A DNA stretch of 32,000 nt from an uncultured Clostridia bacterium (GTDB taxonomy: Bacteria > Bacillota > Clostridia > Christensenellales > Aristaeellaceae): the NCBI GenBank assembly GCA_937907055.1, contig CALCTW010000034.1:3009-35008 (forward strand), written 5' to 3'. A program made the position numbers and the translations under genes. The notes beneath the pieces are model-generated. The model had not been told where the DNA came from. It searched no databases and was given only the letters and a program-made list of their open reading frames with translations. Each line of letters opens with the position of its first letter. The first letter of the stretch is position 1. Shown piece by piece: positions 5,754 through 12,562 of the stretch.

Positions 5754-6644
5754 ATGTCTGATTACATTCTCAGCTGCTGCTCTACCGCGGATATGAGCAA
5801 AGAATACTTTGAAAGCCGTAACATCCGTTACGCCTGCTTCAACTACGAACTGGACGGCACGACCTACAAGGATGACCTGGGTGTCACCATTCCCCTGCCG
5901 GATTTCTACGCCGCCATGGCGGAAGGCAAGATGACCCGCACCAGCCAGATCAACACCGAAGATTACGAAGCCTACTTTGAAGAGCTGCTGCAGGAGAACA
6001 AGCCCATCCTGCACATTGCCTTCTCCTCCGGTCTTTCCGGCTCTGTCAACAGCGCGATCATCGCGGCGGACAATGTGATGGAACGCCATCCCGGCTCCCG
6101 TGTCGTGGTGATCGACTCCGTGGCCGCTTCCTCCGGCTTCGGTCTGCTGGTGGACAAGGCCGCCGATCTGCGCGACGAAGGCAAGACCCTCGAAGAAAAC
6201 GCCGCCTGGATCGAGGCCCACAAAAAGAACCTGAACCACTGGTTCTTCACCACCACCCTCACCTACTTCATCCGCGGCGGCCGCGTCAGCAAGGTGAGCG
6301 GCACCCTGGGCAACATGCTCAATATCTGCCCCCTGCTCATCGTGAATGACGAAGGCAAGCTGATCAACGTGGAAAAGATCCGCACCAAGAAGAAGGTCAA
6401 GGCCACCATCGTGGACCGTATGATCGAAAACGCGGACAATGGCCTTGATTATGACGGCAAGTGCTTCATCTCCAACAGCAACTGCCTGGAGGACGCGCAG
6501 GATGTGGCCCGTATGATCGAAGAAAAGTTCCCCAAGCTGAACGGCAAAGTGCAGATCTACGACATCGGCACCGTCATCGGCAGCCACACCGGCCCCGGCA
6601 CCGTCGCGGTCTTCTTCTGGGGCAAGGAGCGCACGAACGCCTGA
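5754..6644 (+). CDS. DegV family fatty-acid-binding protein
   Basis: The overall sequence pattern is typical of DegV (for example VIDSVAASSGFGLLV and the GPGTVAVFF end). AAGGAG SD lies before the ATG. Confidence 0.9.
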   Translation: MSDYILSCCSTADMSKEYFESRNIRYACFNYELDGTTYKDDLGVTIPLPDFYAAMAEGKMTRTSQINTEDYEAYFEELLQENKPILHIAFSSGLSGSVNSAIIAADNVMERHPGSRVVVIDSVAASSGFGLLVDKAADLRDEGKTLEENAAWIEAHKKNLNHWFFTTTLTYFIRGGRVSKVSGTLGNMLNICPLLIVNDEGKLINVEKIRTKKKVKATIVDRMIENADNGLDYDGKCFISNSNCLEDAQDVARMIEEKFPKLNGKVQIYDIGTVIGSHTGPGTVAVFFWGKERTNA

Positions 6645-6790
6645 TCGCTCCGAACGGCAAGCCGCGCGGCTCCTGCAAAGAGCACCGCGCGTATTAAAAA
6701 AGCCTCCGGCAGTACAGCCTGAAGGCTGCCCGTCGTGCTCCCCAGTTCAGCAAGCGCTGATTTGCGGAAGTACAGATATTGCTTTCAAAG

Positions 6791-6826
6791 GACTCCGATC
6801 TCAGAAATGGGATCGGAGTCTTTTTT
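6791..6826 (+). terminator. Rho-independent terminator
   Basis: A perfect 10 bp stem GACTCCGATC (6791-6800) / GATCGGAGTC (6811-6820) with a 10 nt loop, followed by T6 (6821-6826). It sits at the point where composition drops to AT-rich. Confidence 0.75.
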
Positions 6827-6962
6827 GCTATGTACGGGTTTTACTATCCTTATGACCTTAATACAGCAAATCTATTGATGCATTTTGTTGCTGATTTGAT
6901 AAGTTGTTGCTTCGCTTGAAAAGGGATTATTTTGTATATGAGCCAAATACCAACTCAAAGGC

Positions 6963-6991
6963 TTGACAGAATCGTCAAAACGAACTATAAT
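6963..6991 (+). promoter_or_regulatory. Perfect-consensus sigma-70/sigma-A promoter
   Basis: TTGACA (6963-6968), exactly 17 nt, then TATAAT (6986-6991). The TTG of the -35 box is what the ORF track uses as the start codon of the 394 aa ORF. Confidence 0.7.
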
Positions 6992-7067
6992 TGAGAGCGT
7001 GAAAACTTACCATGTTGGACTACATGATGCAAGCGATCACTGTACCAAGAAAGAGAGGGCACCACAA

Positions 7068-8147
7068 GTGGAAGGAACAAGCGAAAAAGTGAAGCATCCA
7101 TGCGTGGCTCTTCGGGATGAAATGATTCGCGCCGGCATGAATCAAAGGGAGCTCTCAGTTCGAACCGGAGCCACAGAGAAGCATATCAGCACTGTTCTGA
7201 ACGGTGACCGAGATATCTCGGTGGCATTTGCCAGAAAGCTAGGTTATGTGTTTGAACATGACGCAACCTATTGGCTTGATTTGCAGGCACAGTACGACAG
7301 CTATCAGATGCGTATTCGTGAAGAAAATGAAATATCACAAGACGAGCTTGATATTCTCAAACCCTTGCATGATATTTGTGAGCACTTCATTCAGCGCGGA
7401 TATCTGAAGAATCATTGCGGCGATGCAACAAAGGTCATGCGTCTTCGGTCACTGCTTGGCGTCAGTGACCTGACTGCCATTCCGAGGATTACATATAACG
7501 CAGCGTATCGCGCTCAGATCACAGAGAATGTGAAGGTGGATCCGTATGTGCTGTTTGCATGGCAACGGTTATGCGAAAAAGAAACGGAACACATTATCTC
7601 AGATTCAGATCTGAATGTGGATAAACTTCAGGAATGCATCGGTGAAATCAAGCAACAGATGCATGGCGCCATAACGGAAAGCATTGCTTCGCTGCAGAAT
7701 ATCTTTGCCCGCTGCGGTATAGCATTTCAGGTGGTGAAGAATTTCCGCGGAGCCCCTGTTCAAGGGTTCATAAAAAAAACGGAGGCAGGGAAAGTACTGT
7801 TATGCCTCACGATCCGCGGCGGACGATCGGATGCATTTTGGTTTACCTTGTTCCATGAGATCGGTCATCTCTTGCATGGTGATGTGACCACGAGATTTGT
7901 GGATTTTGACTCCATATCAGGGAAGGCAGAAGATGCTGCCAATCGGTTTGCGAGTGATACGCTGATCGATCCGGAAAAGTACAGACAGTTTTTGCGAAGC
8001 AAGTCTTCGATTCTGTGGCAGGATATTGAAGCATTTGCGAAGCAGGAAGATATCATGCCCTCTATTGTGCTGGGTCGTCTGCAAAAAGACGGTATTCTGG
8101 AGTGGTCTGACTACGCAGGCAATGTAGTTCGCTACCAGTGGGCGTGA
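7068..8147 (+). CDS. Fusion of an XRE/HigA-type HTH domain with an ImmA/IrrE (COG2856, Peptidase_M78-like) zinc metallopeptidase domain
   Basis: The N-terminus HPCVALRDEMIRAGMNQRELSVRTGATEKHISTVLNGDRDISVAFARKLGYVF follows the HigA/VapI HTH pattern. The C-terminus carries the HEXXH motif FHEIGHLLHGD. The start is uncertain: GTG 7068 (GAGGG 8 nt upstream) is preferred, with GTG 7089 as an alternative. Either must lie downstream of the promoter at 6963-6991. Confidence 0.85.
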   Translation: MEGTSEKVKHPCVALRDEMIRAGMNQRELSVRTGATEKHISTVLNGDRDISVAFARKLGYVFEHDATYWLDLQAQYDSYQMRIREENEISQDELDILKPLHDICEHFIQRGYLKNHCGDATKVMRLRSLLGVSDLTAIPRITYNAAYRAQITENVKVDPYVLFAWQRLCEKETEHIISDSDLNVDKLQECIGEIKQQMHGAITESIASLQNIFARCGIAFQVVKNFRGAPVQGFIKKTEAGKVLLCLTIRGGRSDAFWFTLFHEIGHLLHGDVTTRFVDFDSISGKAEDAANRFASDTLIDPEKYRQFLRSKSSILWQDIEAFAKQEDIMPSIVLGRLQKDGILEWSDYAGNVVRYQWA

Positions 8148-8370
8148 ATCGCCGTTGTGATCTGTATTTGGCGATACAGGTCACAGTGGCCTGAATCCAG
8201 AGATGAAGGAGGTGAGAATATTGAGGGCAATAAAAAAACCGGTAGTTGACTGTTGGCGCAGCTGCTACCGGTACCCCTGCGGAATTGGCGTTCCACAAGA
8301 GCAGAAGCGTCAGATGATGACACTTTCCCACAGTCATCATAACACTTTTCTGCTGCGACGTCAATAAACT

Positions 8371-8435
8371 ATGCTTTTGTTCTGTAGATATGAATGCTTT
8401 TGTTCTGTAATATGAACGGATATGAACAAAAGCAT
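8371..8435 (+). promoter_or_regulatory. Repeat cluster (putative operator) with an embedded candidate promoter
   Basis: ATGCTTTTGTTCTGTA occurs twice in direct orientation (8371-8386 and 8394-8409, 23 bp period). Its inverted copy GAACAAAAGCAT lies at 8424-8435. ATATGAA occurs three times (8388, 8410, 8420). A candidate promoter TAGATA (8385-8390)-17-TAATAT (8408-8413) has repeat 2 filling its spacer. Confidence 0.5.
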
Positions 8436-8476
8436 GTTGACTAGAATTGCTCTGAGGAGCAGAAAGTGAGAATAAT

Positions 8477-9151
8477 ATGACGGATATTTTTACTGTCGCG
8501 GATCTACTAGAAATCATTAGGGATTATAAAATGTATCTTCAAGGGAAGGTACATTTTGCTCCGGATGGTTGGCCGATAATGGAGCGAGAATGGTTCCTCG
8601 ATGTATGGCCTGATGAACTTGTTCCATATCCAAATCGGAACAATAAACTGTATCACAACAAGCACAATTCTACTCTATGCTACTATTGCGCTGACAATCG
8701 CATCTATCCAAGATTCAATAACCTGTTTCAAGAAATCGGATCATACAAAGCATTTCAAGGAGTTGTTGGACCGGATATCACAGTTACCAGAGACATGGAT
8801 ATCGAGCTGCAACAATCGATTATGTTGGCAAATCAGTTGTTTATGGCGATTCTTGCAGTAAATGGAATCAAAGTTGTACTTAACACCCGTTGCGGGGGAT
8901 TGGCAACAGTATCGTGCTTCCGATACCTCCCCAAAGGGATTATGTGTGCATCCGGCTTCCTTGGTTGCAGCAATTCCCGTACAACATCAGAAGCGAGCAT
9001 ATATGTCAACAAGGTGTTATCTTTACGGCCGTCTAAATTGCTTGTATACGGAAAGCAAGATGAATTGGTTAACCAACAATTGGATACGCTTGGTATTAAC
9101 TATAGGTATTACGAAGATTTTCATCGTATTTCTTGCAGGAGGTGCGTGTGA
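8477..9151 (+). CDS. DUF4417-like protein (function unknown)
   Basis: The sequence follows the pattern I recall for DUF4417: FQGVVGPDITVTRDMDIELQQSIMLANQLFMAILAVNGIKVVLNTRCGG, then KGIMCASGFLGC, then PSKLLVYG. This rests on recollection, not on a search. Confidence 0.65.
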   Translation: MTDIFTVADLLEIIRDYKMYLQGKVHFAPDGWPIMEREWFLDVWPDELVPYPNRNNKLYHNKHNSTLCYYCADNRIYPRFNNLFQEIGSYKAFQGVVGPDITVTRDMDIELQQSIMLANQLFMAILAVNGIKVVLNTRCGGLATVSCFRYLPKGIMCASGFLGCSNSRTTSEASIYVNKVLSLRPSKLLVYGKQDELVNQQLDTLGINYRYYEDFHRISCRRCV

Positions 9152-9537
9152 TGTCTGACTATAAGCAAGCGTATTCTGATATCTCTAAAGATTACATCGA
9201 GAATGTCGTCCCCAACAATTCACTGGACACGGAGCGCTACAATCGAAGCAAACTTCGAGAAGCGAAGAACAATGATAACTGGTTGAAAAACAAAGTAAAT
9301 CTCAATGAAATTGTGGACCGTTTTGTCCCAACCGTTGAAGGCTTTGTGGAACAGCATCACGAAGGTGGTGTCAAGTATGACTTTGAAGGAGAAAGATATA
9401 TTGTAAAATGTGATAAAGTTGCAGGCTACCTTCGGATCTATGATAAACAAGCAAAAATGTATTGTACATTGGATGGGACTCCTTCAAGAAATGGTGACGA
9501 AACTCATTTCAAGATCAAACGAAGGGAGGAGATGTGA
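9151..9537 (+). CDS. Hypothetical protein (128 aa), no recognised domain
   Basis: The ATG overlaps the upstream stop (TGATG). AGGAGG lies 8 nt upstream. Coding-like composition. The C-terminal segment VAGYLRIYDKQAKMYCTLDGTPSRNGDETHFKIK looks beta-rich. Confidence 0.6.
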   Translation: MSDYKQAYSDISKDYIENVVPNNSLDTERYNRSKLREAKNNDNWLKNKVNLNEIVDRFVPTVEGFVEQHHEGGVKYDFEGERYIVKCDKVAGYLRIYDKQAKMYCTLDGTPSRNGDETHFKIKRREEM

Positions 9538-9541
9538 CCGT

Positions 9542-9886
9542 ATGTGGATTCGGGTAGCGAAACACCAAAGCGCCATCAAAATCGGCCAAGCTGGTAATCG
9601 TTATATTGATGGGCCTCTTATCGAAGAATTCTATTTTGACGAAGCAATGGCAGAAGCACTGGATGCAGATCATTTTCTTCCTGAAATGTGGGAAAAACTT
9701 CAGGCAATGTTTGATTGGGGAGATTGTGATTATTTCGAAGCTGATCGTTGCAAGAAGCTTTACACTTGGGTTTCAGAAAGACTGTGCAAAGACATCTCTC
9801 CTGCGATCAGACCTGTATATGAGGTGATGCAAGAGTATTCTGCATTGGCCGTAAGGCTTAATACCGGGATGTACTTTGATTTTTGA
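9542..9886 (+). CDS. Hypothetical acidic protein (114 aa), no recognised domain
   Basis: The ATG lies 4 nt after the upstream stop. GGGAGGAG lies about 11 nt upstream. The protein is Trp/Asp/Glu-rich. The upstream part of the 158 aa track ORF overlaps the previous gene and is not used. Confidence 0.6.
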   Translation: MWIRVAKHQSAIKIGQAGNRYIDGPLIEEFYFDEAMAEALDADHFLPEMWEKLQAMFDWGDCDYFEADRCKKLYTWVSERLCKDISPAIRPVYEVMQEYSALAVRLNTGMYFDF

Positions 9887-9896
9887 GGACGCATTG

Positions 9897-10316
9897 ATGA
9901 AATCAACTTATCAAATACCGTCGATACATCTTGATTCGCGCCCTCTCCCCACAGTTGTCCCTAAGATAATACAATTGTCTGAAGCTGAACGGTACCGGGA
10001 CTTGTCGAATGATTATGATCTTACAGATTACCCTGATTGTAAAAGGAAGGTATCTGCTCTTGATCTTCTAAGGATAAACGATGAGAAAGCGATTCTGTCT
10101 GCTCTGCTGCCCTTTCCTGGCAATATGACACTGGTAGTAGTACTTGACTACCTTGCTGGTTGCAGACCGGCAGACAGTTTGTTTGTGAGACGCACACTCC
10201 AAGCCATTCAACTTGTTCTGTCCCTCTTTCCGCAAGTTACTATTATGCTTGCTGTTACACCAACCGAACAAGACTTCTTTCGGGATATAATCAATACAGC
10301 ATACAAGGGAGCGTAA
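9897..10316 (+). CDS. Hypothetical protein (139 aa), no recognised domain
   Basis: The ATG lies 10 nt after the upstream stop, with GAGGA 7 nt upstream. The C-terminal half is hydrophobic (LVVVLDYLAGC...LVLSLFPQVTIMLAV). Confidence 0.55.
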   Translation: MKSTYQIPSIHLDSRPLPTVVPKIIQLSEAERYRDLSNDYDLTDYPDCKRKVSALDLLRINDEKAILSALLPFPGNMTLVVVLDYLAGCRPADSLFVRRTLQAIQLVLSLFPQVTIMLAVTPTEQDFFRDIINTAYKGA

Positions 10317-10320
10317 TCTG

Positions 10321-10668
10321 ATGAATCATGAAACCATTGGCCTGAAAGTCACGGAATACGCATCCATGGCTACCTTGTGTGACCATTATCAGAAAATACC
10401 GCAATGCATCCATGAGCGAGATTGTCTCAGCAATCAAGAACAACGAGTATGTTCTATGCTTTGATTATGATGATGACCGCGGTCTGAAAAAATCATCGCC
10501 TGCTACAAGGCACTTCGGAAGGCAAAGATTGGCGCCCAGTTATATGAGATGGATGACGAGCCCACCACGCTCAAGTTCATGGAGAACCTGAACGGTACCT
10601 ATCGGCAGATCTCTGAAGAGTGGATGCACAGATGGAAGCAGAGTCCGAGACCTGATCTTTATAGCTAA
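10321..10668 (+). pseudogene. Frame-disrupted small ORF (about 115 codons if repaired), unknown function
   Basis: An ATG at 10321 has AGGGAG 9 nt upstream. Protein-like translation continues only by switching frame twice, near the TGTGTG run (~10376-10381) and at the A6 run (10487-10492). The repaired C-terminus is ...DDDRGLKK/IIACYKALRKAKIGAQLYEMDDEPTTLKFMENLNGTYRQISEEWMHRWKQSPRPDLYS, with the stop at 10666-10668. Confidence 0.4.
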
Positions 10669-10701
10669 GAGGACCATCGTTTGAACAAGCGATGGTCTGA
10701 A

Positions 10702-10731
10702 GTCTCCGGCACGAAAGCCGGAGACTTTTTT
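10702..10731 (+). terminator. Rho-independent terminator closing the AT-rich islet operon
   Basis: Stem GTCTCCGGC (10702-10710) / GCCGGAGAC (10717-10725), loop ACGAAA, then T6 (10726-10731). A second hairpin precedes it (GACCATCG...CGATGGTC, ~10672-10697). Confidence 0.7.
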
Positions 10732-10744
10732 ATGTATGGATCAC

Positions 10745-12562
10745 TTACGCGTTCAGCAGAGAGCCGGTCGCCTCATCCTCATACTGACGGGTATACAGGC
10801 GATGATAATAGCCGCCCTTCTTCAGCAGCTCGGTATGCGTGCCCTGTTCCACGATCTTACCGTCCTGCACCACGAGGATCAGATCGGCATTCTTGACAGT
10901 AGACAGGCGGTGCGCGATCACAAGGCTGGTACGGCCCTGTATGATGGTATCGATGGCAGCCTGGATCTTCTGTTCGGTCAGGGTATCCACGCTGGCCGTG
11001 GCTTCATCCAGCACCAGAATCCGGGGATCGCACAGGATGGCGCGCGCGAAGCTGATCAATTGCTTTTCGCCGGTGGACAGCACATCGCCGCCCTCGCCCA
11101 CATCGGTATCGATGCCGTTTTCCATCCGCGCCACCACCTCATCCGCGCTGACCAGCTTCAGCGCGCGGGCGATCTGTTCCTCCGTCGCGTTCGGATTGCC
11201 GTACAGCAGGTTTTCACGGATCGTGCCGCTGAACAGATGCGGTGTCTGCAGCACGTAGCCGATGGCGGAATGCAGCCACAGCTGACTGCGCTCCCGGGCA
11301 TCCCGGTCATCGATCAGCACCTGACCCGCGGTGGGCTCAAAGAAGCGGCAGACCAGATTGACCAGTGTACTCTTGCCCGCGCCGGTCTCGCCGACGATGG
11401 CGATATTGCTGCCGAAGGGGATCTTCAGATTAAAATGCTCCAGCACGTATTCATCGCCGTCCGGATACCTGAAGGAGACATCCTTGAATTCGATATCGCC
11501 GCGCAGCGGTTCCCAGTTTTCCTTCTTCGGGTTGAAGGAGTCGCCGTACTGTTCAATGACCGCGGGGGTATCGGTCACATCGCTCTTCGTGCCCAGCAGA
11601 CGGGTCAGACGCTCGATATTGACCTGCGTTGTAATCACATCGCTGATCGCGTCAATGATCCAGCGGACAGGCTCCATCATGCCCTCGGCATAGCTCATGA
11701 ACATGGAGAAGGTGCCCACTTCGCTCTCGGCGATGTATCCGCCCTTCCACAGCACGATGGCCAGCGCCAGACTGCTGGCCAGGTTCATGGTGGCGGCAAA
11801 CAGTCCGCGAAGACGGCTGGCATGGATGCCCATGTGCTTCATCTTCGCCGTATCGGCATTGAAATCGCCGTTCATCTTATCCTCGATCACGAGGGTCTTG
11901 ATGGTCTTGGCGCCGGTAATGCCTTCATTGAAATCGCCCGTGATCCTGCTGTTCTGCTCGCGGATCTGACGGTTCACATGCACCAGCTTTTTCTGGAACA
12001 GGCTGAAAAGGATCACGATCAGCGGCAGAATGGTGACCACCATCAGCGCCAGCTTGGCGTTGACGATGAACATGACCGCCACGACACCCACCAGATAGCT
12101 CAGATGCCACACGCTGTCCATCAGCGTCCAGCTGACCAGCGAGCCGATGCGGGAGGTGTCGCTCATCACACGGCTGTGGATATAGCCCACGCTGTTCTGA
12201 TTAAAATAGCTGAAGGAAAGGGTCTGCAGATGATTGAACGCCGCGTTGCGCAGGTCCCGGTTGAAGGAGACCTCCACCGTCATGGCGCCGGAGCAGCTCA
12301 CATAGTTGCACGCGCCCGCGAACAGGGTGCAGCCGACATACAGCAGAATGAACCACGGCAGGGTGTCCAGGGTATGCTCCCCGATAAAGTGGTTCAGCGC
12401 GTAGCGCTGGAAAACCGGAATCAGGATATCCACACCCGTCGCCAGCAGGCCGCAAAACACCATGATGCTCAGCCGCTTCCGGTACTTTTTCATGAACGGG
12501 ATCAGCCGCGGGATCCCGAAAAACGGCAGAGACACATTTTTTTCTTTCGTTTCTTCACTCAT
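10745..12562 (-). CDS. ABC transporter permease/ATP-binding protein (type I exporter half-transporter, second of pair)
   Basis: An N-terminal six-TM exporter domain. Walker A GETGAGKS, signature LSTGEKQ, Walker B ILVLDEATAS. The start overlaps the upstream stop (TAATG at 12560-12564). Confidence 0.93.
   Translation of the reverse strand: MSEETKEKNVSLPFFGIPRLIPFMKKYRKRLSIMVFCGLLATGVDILIPVFQRYALNHFIGEHTLDTLPWFILLYVGCTLFAGACNYVSCSGAMTVEVSFNRDLRNAAFNHLQTLSFSYFNQNSVGYIHSRVMSDTSRIGSLVSWTLMDSVWHLSYLVGVVAVMFIVNAKLALMVVTILPLIVILFSLFQKKLVHVNRQIREQNSRITGDFNEGITGAKTIKTLVIEDKMNGDFNADTAKMKHMGIHASRLRGLFAATMNLASSLALAIVLWKGGYIAESEVGTFSMFMSYAEGMMEPVRWIIDAISDVITTQVNIERLTRLLGTKSDVTDTPAVIEQYGDSFNPKKENWEPLRGDIEFKDVSFRYPDGDEYVLEHFNLKIPFGSNIAIVGETGAGKSTLVNLVCRFFEPTAGQVLIDDRDARERSQLWLHSAIGYVLQTPHLFSGTIRENLLYGNPNATEEQIARALKLVSADEVVARMENGIDTDVGEGGDVLSTGEKQLISFARAILCDPRILVLDEATASVDTLTEQKIQAAIDTIIQGRTSLVIAHRLSTVKNADLILVVQDGKIVEQGTHTELLKKGGYYHRLYTRQYEDEATGSLLNA

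Follow-up and report, generated by a model that had tools for sequence, protein, structure and literature searches.

The stretch analyzed here, called the window throughout, comprises 32,000 nucleotides of contig CALCTW010000034.1 from an uncultured Clostridia bacterium of the Aristaeellaceae, and the element in question is a regulator gene on its plus strand (7068-8147) whose 359-residue product joins a HigA-type helix-turn-helix (HTH) domain, a helical middle region and an M78 zinc peptidase of the ImmA/IrrE/CapP-like type. The gene lies in a low-GC islet (approximately 6.83-10.7 kb; 39-47% GC versus 55-65% in the flanks) and is followed on the same strand by a DUF4417 gene and further small cargo genes. 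The open reading frame (ORF) originally listed, 6963-8147, was confirmed, and its initial TTG is part of the -35 hexamer of a promoter, as a sequence-only reading of this DNA had already suspected when it argued for a shorter N-terminus. That suspicion is supported both by the public gene call, which gives the identical 359-residue product, and by the homologues first collected, in 90 of 90 of which the alignment begins no earlier than the residues encoded at 7089 (VKHPC...). The five closest relatives (loci L012 and L186-L189; 70-76% identity) start 7-9 codons before the HPC motif, behind a Shine-Dalgarno (SD) sequence. This comparison makes GTG 7068, with the SD GAGAGGG at 7053-7059, the most likely start in the window, and the ORF-track start is then off by 35 codons.

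The HigA/VapI-type HTH domain (7095-7352, plus strand) is recognized by the NCBIfam HigA antitoxin model TIGR02607 (41.4 bits, under the equivalog cut-off of 47.7), by profile matches to the PDB and by Foldseek. The M78 peptidase domain (7700-8100, plus strand) contains the HEIGH motif at 7854-7868 and, about 25 residues later, EDAANRFA with the Glu that serves as third ligand. Both His and the Glu of HEIGH, the Asp that follows and the EDAANRFA Glu show no variation among 36 aligned sequences, down to 38% identity. The Pfam model Peptidase_M78 (PF06114; cut-off 22) gives 22.0 bits for the trimmed 352-residue form and 21.9 bits for the 394-residue ORF, and it is matched by all 36 of the aligned homologues, with a best E of 4e-8. 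A profile built from the 36 sequences finds HigA/VapI antitoxins in the PDB at E~1e-10. The AlphaFold2 model of the regulator (pLDDT 89) has CapP (7t5t) as its top Foldseek match (E=1e-4, prob 1.0), followed by PprI (8sln) and IrrE (3dti and 3dte); the TM-scores of the peptidase part are low (0.3) because only one domain aligns. The N-terminal part of the model matches many HigA structures, with TM 0.7-0.85 to the targets. The sequence-only reading had described an XRE/HigA HTH fused to a COG2856-type HEIGH protease and had named profile support for Peptidase_M78/COG2856 as a check; the M78 assignment is supported at cut-off, and profiles and structural matches agree on the fusion.

The best profile match of the regulator is the PADLOC model PD-Lambda-2_B (PDLC03982; E=1.2e-27), which covers ORF residues 43-376 and profile positions 57-376 of 402. 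Several PADLOC RmrA models match weakly (2e-8 to 6e-3), in the peptidase core only, and capP (8e-7) and capH (0.02) give partial matches only. The gene can be assigned to the Xre-COG2856 fusion class, with an intact catalytic motif and PD-lambda-2B as its closest relation, at a confidence much higher than that of the mechanism proposed below. According to Makarova, Wolf and Koonin (2009, PMC2701414), COG2856 and Xre occur as a fusion in over half of the cases, the fusions sit with RelE or PIN toxins, and a LexA-like autoprotease-repressor has already been proposed for them. The fusion architecture itself is not new, and the gene is an ordinary member of a common, known class. The notion that protease and repressor are normally separate, on which the sequence-only reading had relied, fails: fusions are the majority form (PMC2701414), and PD-lambda-2B and RmrA of RosmerTA are tested examples. 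The general idea of a self-contained repressor-protease beside unknown effectors was correct, although that reading had noted neither the absence of the common HigB-like partner nor the mini-ORF and antisense sRNA that separate the regulator from the effectors. PD-lambda-2 of E. coli ECOR42 has three components, A, B and C, of which A is HigB-like and B is the HigA-HTH-peptidase; the toxicity of B on its own is relieved by A, and defence requires C (Vassallo et al. 2022, PMC9519451).

The regulator has matches in more than 1,400 protein clusters, and relatives are encoded on at least 548 stretches in species-representative genomes. A metagenome scan returned no relatives above 63% identity; closer ones were obtained via exact-protein look-ups. 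When ORFs were called and clustered around 84 loci (777 kb), a gene of approximately 120 aa was found directly upstream of the regulator in 53 of them, and its profile matches the HigB, GraT and YoeB toxins in the PDB (E=1.6e-4). The window and about 24 other loci are without this HigB-like gene and carry instead a downstream DUF4417 gene, followed by small variable gene pairs. In a maximum-likelihood tree, all DUF4417-linked regulators fall into a single clade of 28 rows (support 98/89), which is embedded among the HigB-linked regulators, and the HigB-like component A is absent across this whole clade. In the window, no ORF lies between the degV terminator and the regulator promoter, and the HigB-like profile finds no match in the organism's own genome assembly (2.55 Mb, 140 contigs, 89% complete). 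The tree indicates that a single, well-supported clade lost its HigB-like partner and gained DUF4417 together with toxin/immunity-like cargo; its members come from Clostridia, Lachnospiraceae, Succinivibrionaceae, Bifidobacterium apri and Segatella copri. Plasmid relatives are named by PGAP either 'HigA family addiction module antitoxin' or 'ImmA/IrrE family metallo-endopeptidase', and the label 'HigA antitoxin' is misleading wherever HigB is absent.

Upstream of the regulator, a SigA/Sigma-70-type promoter, TTGACA-17-TATAAT, occupies 6963-6991 on the plus strand (-35, 6963-6968; -10, 6986-6991), with zero mismatches, as the sequence-only reading had observed; it is the sole 12/12 site within 6.5-11 kb. 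That reading had considered such a promoter rare in natural DNA, a judgment contradicted by the own assembly, in which 45 perfect copies occur: perfect consensus promoters are routine in this host organism. The reversed control pattern occurs 0 times in the whole assembly, which places the 6963-6991 site far above chance and makes it almost certainly a used promoter. Transcription would start near 6998, and the 5' leader of the regulator gene is approximately 70 nt long. Near-consensus promoters (10-12 of 12 positions) are found across the regulators of the DUF4417 clade, those of L031, L188 and L189 also being perfect. Within the subclade of the window (six sequences), CTTGACA and the start of the -10 (TAT) are invariant in an otherwise diverged leader. 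As a separate observation on the genome, several of the 45 perfect promoters form divergent back-to-back pairs about 60-130 nt apart (for example G000:C23:4833-4947, C75:5961-6102 and C99:32895-33050).

The upstream regions of the relatives share a family palindrome, TTACC-N5-GGTAA, located beside the -35 or just 3' of the -10. Among the 84 loci, 52 exact copies were counted, all 52 at most 600 nt upstream of the regulator and none elsewhere, and at least one exact copy is present in 48 of the 84. In the HigB clade the palindrome lies before HigB, and in the DUF4417 clade at the regulator's own promoter. This confinement to regulator upstream regions provides strong comparative evidence that TTACC-N5-GGTAA is the predicted HTH binding site and that these regulators are autoregulated. 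In the window, a variant of the palindrome, TTACC-ATGTT-GGACT, forms leader box 1 (7007-7021), just 3' of the -10; its TTACC (7007-7011) is invariant in all six subclade sequences and is followed, after 5 nt, by the right half rGACyA. Leader box 2, GTACCA (7042-7047), precedes the SD already described, the two together spanning 7042-7059 on the plus strand; the second TACC (7043-7046), directly before the SD, and the SD itself are likewise invariant in the six sequences. The TTACC boxes of the 5' leader, at 7007-7021 and 7042-7047, are therefore put forward as candidate operators on the basis of their conservation. The sequence-only reading had instead pointed to repeats at 6.88-6.95 kb and 8.37-8.44 kb as binding sites; the former are unconserved in the closest relatives and contain no match to the 12-mer of the 8.37-kb repeats within 2 mismatches. 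The leader also contains a 26-codon upstream ORF (uORF; 7012-7092), whose ATG lies inside leader box 1 and whose GTGA end overlaps the in-frame GTG 7089. L012 has a similar uORF, with an ATGA end at its start codon, and L186-L189 have none; the uORF is probably due to chance, because no SD precedes it.

The spacer between the regulator and the cargo contains three conserved elements. The first is a strong SD, AGGAGGTG (8207-8214), with the TTG start of a mini-ORF at 8221 (8207-8223 in all, plus strand), whose frame remains open to 8367. In nearly all loci of the DUF4417 clade, an SD and a start codon occur 14-60 nt 3' of the regulator stop, and the length of the mini-ORF ranges from 1 codon (ATG-stop, in Succinivibrionaceae versions) via 3-15 to 48-70 codons. 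Start-stop sites, in which a strong SD and an ATG are immediately followed by a stop, were noted 15-25 nt after the regulator stop in the Succinivibrionaceae-type copies L023, L026, L030, L034, L036, L046, L112 and L120. That the 48-codon Cys-rich small ORF of the window encodes a protein was considered and rejected, since the nucleotides that are conserved fall into another frame in L187 and L188 and the length varies from 1 to 70 codons among relatives.

The second and third elements, a terminator and a promoter on the minus strand, together define a candidate antisense small RNA (sRNA) of approximately 98 nt, encoded on that strand (8232-8329) and convergent with the regulator. Its terminator hairpin lies at 8239-8271, with the T-run supplied by A7 at 8232-8238, and its promoter, TTGACG-17-TATGAT with a TG before the -10, at 8336-8364 on the same strand; in many relatives this promoter reads TTGACT-17-TATAAT (11/12). 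Promoter, body and terminator are present together in 22 distinct relatives. The predicted fold has three hairpins (-41.5 kcal/mol), and RNAalifold, applied to 13 of the 22 relatives, gives 27 pairs, 15 of them compensatory. For this structure, 92% of the cells are paired on the minus strand versus 74% on the plus strand, with 71 versus 8 G-U cells, a comparison to be read with caution because the structure was predicted on the minus-strand alignment. The terminator stems are wholly different among relatives, and the loop motif is kept (GCGCCAACAG in the group of the window). The covarying stems, and the retention of SD and start even where the mini-ORF is reduced to ATG-stop, indicate selection on the spacer elements. 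An Rfam scan of 6600-10800 (E<=1) gave two chance-level matches only, none of them in the spacer, and the search for trans targets of the sRNA within the islet returned a single 9-nt match, taken as chance. In the par locus of pAD1 (Fst/RNA II), a toxin mRNA and an antisense RNA are convergent and share a bidirectional terminator. The spacer resembles par in that a short ORF and a convergent RNA of about 70-100 nt end at one hairpin, whose loop is kept and whose stem covaries. The mini-ORF peptide, however, is unconserved, and its reduction to ATG-stop means that, unlike in par, it is not a toxin.

No plus-strand terminator was found between 8147 and 8477, neither a family operator nor a convincing promoter was found before the DUF4417 gene, and the whole spacer measures only 38-71 nt in L186, L024 and L039. 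These features suggest that the cargo is transcribed by read-through from the regulator promoter. Before the DUF4417 gene, the 12-mer ATGCTTTTGTTC forms two direct repeats and one inverted copy at 8371-8435; three of its four genome copies lie here, and within the window it is confined to this interval. The segment of approximately 110 nt that holds these copies is specific to the window; L187 and L188, although collinear in other respects, do not have it. In a plus-strand transcript, the copies would be able to pair into either of two 12-bp hairpins 5' of the DUF4417 SD.

The cargo, all on the plus strand, consists of the DUF4417 gene (8477-9151) and genes for 128 aa (9151-9537), 114 aa (9542-9886) and 139 aa (9897-10316), followed by a frameshifted last gene (10321-10668) that is readable only across two frame changes, with protein-like sequence continuing in other frames. 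A terminator hairpin (10699-10728) marks the right end of the low-GC islet. The DUF4417 model (pLDDT 86) shows a beta/alpha-repeat fold whose structural matches are weak and TIM-barrel-like only (TM ~0.4, E ~1e-2), too weak to derive a function from structure; in the literature, DUF4417 appears only as a phage-enriched partner of ParB-CTPase domains. The small cargo proteins gave no usable matches in Pfam, NCBIfam, PADLOC or PHROGs, and the PADLOC PD-Lambda-2 models, component C included, matched none of the four downstream proteins; the small cargo looks like a toxin/immunity pair. The gene order of the window (359/360, 224, 128, 114 and 142/127 aa) is kept in L187 and L188. On the plasmid-like contig of L008-L011, which bears ParM-like, NikA-like and relaxase genes, the order is regulator, EndoU_bacteria toxin, 119-aa gene, DUF4417 and RhuM, a gene content that shows the cargo to be modular. 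Other arrangements were also noted: L030 (6131-9500) carries two tandem spacer/DUF4417/toxin-like/immunity-like units behind one regulator, L012 (~7800-8700) a second, truncated HTH-M78 ORF of 295 aa 3' of the cargo, and L006 (12167-12883) an Ntox35-domain gene with two small downstream genes near the cassette, in a locus of polymorphic-toxin type.

The sites of the cassette are unrelated to one another: in the window it is flanked by degV and an ABC exporter, in L002-L007 by ogt and amt, and in L008-L011, where the EndoU toxin is also present, it lies beside a relaxase and a ParM-like gene. A search of 30 relatives did not find the islet, which was therefore probably acquired recently. No integrase, recombinase or phage genes were detected within 6.8-10.7 kb, no tRNA/tmRNA insertion target was found, and no border sequence is common with the other insertion sites. 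Between the degV stop and the islet lies an element of about 50-115 nt (6711-6825), which ends in a hairpin and T-run (6787-6830) and of which many related genomes contain copies with 84-98% identity, several in each, G000:C97 included. It has no Rfam or tRNA match and may be an unknown sRNA or a repeat element.

The regulator was compared with described systems. The Xre-COG2856 three-component toxin-antitoxin (TA) class (PMC2701414) has the same architecture, but its partners are RelE or PIN, whereas the clade of the window is associated with DUF4417 and BECR-like small toxins. PD-lambda-2B shares the HigA-like Xre HTH and the C-terminal ImmA/IrrE peptidase, and the sister clade of the window has a HigB-like gene directly upstream; the window itself is without the HigB-like A and the P4-antitoxin-like C, and has instead downstream DUF4417 and toxin/immunity-like genes behind a spacer with mini-ORF and antisense sRNA. 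RmrA of RosmerTA (Millman et al. 2022; Ernits et al. 2023, PMC10440598) likewise joins an HTH to an ImmA-type zinc peptidase, its neighbouring toxins are variable and often unrecognisable, and it is mobile and defence-associated. In the window, however, the RmrA matches are weak and partial (2e-8), RmrT has no match, and there is no tight coupling to a single toxin gene. CapP, the best structural match of the peptidase part, belongs to the CapH/CapP pair (Lau et al. 2022, preprint 10.1101/2022.04.27.489752; structure 7t5t), whose logic is similar: an M78 protease inactivates an HTH repressor, and an immune operon is induced after DNA damage. CapH and CapP are made as two proteins, from genes that usually diverge from the operon under their control, whereas the window encodes one polypeptide codirectional with its cargo. 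In ImmR/ImmA of ICEBs1 and DdrO/IrrE(PprI) of Deinococcus, an M78 (COG2856) protease cleaves an Xre-type repressor, and PprI/IrrE are structural matches to the peptidase part of the regulator; in these systems protease and repressor are not joined, and what they control is an integrase/excision module or a radiation regulon. The islet is without integrase or recombinase.

Taking these elements together, the regulator may act as an autorepressed, signal-cleaved repressor-protease that gates the cassette, an account to which we give somewhat better than an even chance. The HigA-type HTH would bind the TTACC-type boxes located in the leader behind its own consensus promoter, an operator proposed by comparison with the family, and hold transcription low. 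The promoter would drive the regulator and, by read-through, the DUF4417, 128-aa and 114-aa cargo. A stress signal, by analogy with CapP, PprI and ImmA perhaps single-stranded DNA or DNA damage, would activate the intact M78 site, which would then remove or inactivate the HTH, in cis or between subunits, so that the promoter could fire fully. The mini-ORF, as a ribosome-loading site, and the antisense sRNA may add a second, post-transcriptional threshold that only a strong burst would pass to reach the effectors. Besides the fusion with its intact catalytic motif, the operator palindromes, the invariant leader columns, the near-consensus promoters and the conserved spacer elements, the gating account is supported by the linkage of regulator and DUF4417, which is confined to one clade and recurs at unrelated chromosomal sites and on the relaxase-bearing contig. 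Precedents for protease-triggered derepression are the proposal of Makarova, Wolf and Koonin (2009), the suggestion made by the NetFlax authors for Rosmer-like systems, and CapH/CapP and PprI.

Several points weigh against this gating account. The canonical TTACC-N5-GGTAA is not found in the window (with up to 2 mismatches allowed near the promoter), and L012 is also without it; the differing right half-site of the two could mean that repression is weaker or follows another geometry. The extra 110-nt repeat segment before DUF4417 might hold a separate weak promoter, and the islet may be decaying, as its last cargo gene is frameshifted. Furthermore, PD-lambda-2B, the only relative that has been tested, is toxic when overexpressed and is neutralised by a HigB-like protein, which misfits a simple repressor (PMC9519451). 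In one alternative, the HTH-peptidase itself arrests growth when abundant, tight autorepression and antisense control replace the lost HigB-like neutraliser, and DUF4417 and the genes next to it are unrelated passengers. PD-lambda-2_B being the best profile match, and no HigB-like gene being found upstream or elsewhere in the 89%-complete genome, speak in its favor. Toxicity has been shown, however, solely for overexpression in E. coli, it would be difficult for a cell to keep a toxic protein whose perfect promoter has a degenerate operator, and a passenger role is difficult to reconcile with a DUF4417 linkage kept across the whole clade and several phyla; we consider this alternative quite improbable. 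The frameshifted last gene and the non-canonical operator, together with the probably recent acquisition suggested by the absence of the islet from the 30 relatives, would also suit a plain autoregulated transcription factor on a decaying islet, with a peptidase that is retained but is not a switch and spacer elements that are leftovers, for example a shared terminator. Against such decay stand catalytic residues invariant across the 36 sequences down to 38% identity, and the covarying sRNA stems and the SD/start kept as ATG-stop, which point to selection; we consider this explanation, too, quite improbable.

It is also conceivable that the regulator is a RosmerTA-type antitoxin that acts post-translationally, binding or cleaving an adjacent toxin (DUF4417 or the 128-aa protein) and so neutralising it, with transcriptional control being secondary; phage infection or loss of the cassette would then free the toxin. 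RmrA antitoxins combine HTH and ImmA in the same way, their partners are many unrelated toxins, encoded either before or after them, the regulator has partial RmrA profile matches, and the cargo looks like a toxin/immunity pair. That cargo, however, already has its own immunity-like gene, the gap between regulator and cargo is 200-330 nt and contains an sRNA gene, unlike tight TA coupling, the RmrA matches are weak and limited to the peptidase core, and the family-wide operator points to DNA-level control. On this evidence the antitoxin explanation appears unlikely as a whole, the release of a toxin by infection or loss included.

A broader proposal extends the gating account and is offered tentatively, as a possibility that we regard as doubtful in its entirety. 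The regulator, the mini-ORF with its SD and start(-stop) and the antisense sRNA may constitute an undescribed three-layer gate, made up of autorepression, triggering by proteolysis and a threshold set by antisense control or translational coupling. Such a gate would belong to a new mobile defence/addiction module that evolved in one PD-lambda-2B-like clade, after the swap of HigB for DUF4417 and toxin/immunity genes, and that is spreading between gut and rumen phyla.

Xre-M78 fusions are among the most common unexplained regulators of TA and phage-defence loci, and to our knowledge the mode of sensing or action has been demonstrated for none of them. The family described here offers a handle on this question in three respects: a sharply defined TTACC-N5-GGTAA operator, which is found only at the operon promoter in two clades; the loss of the HigB partner from one clade, which took other cargo, as a natural experiment; and a compact spacer, in which a start(-stop) mini-ORF is combined with an antisense RNA. 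What is new is not the fusion but these details: the exchange of partners at the level of the clade, the sharply defined operator, and a mini-ORF and antisense RNA that are conserved.

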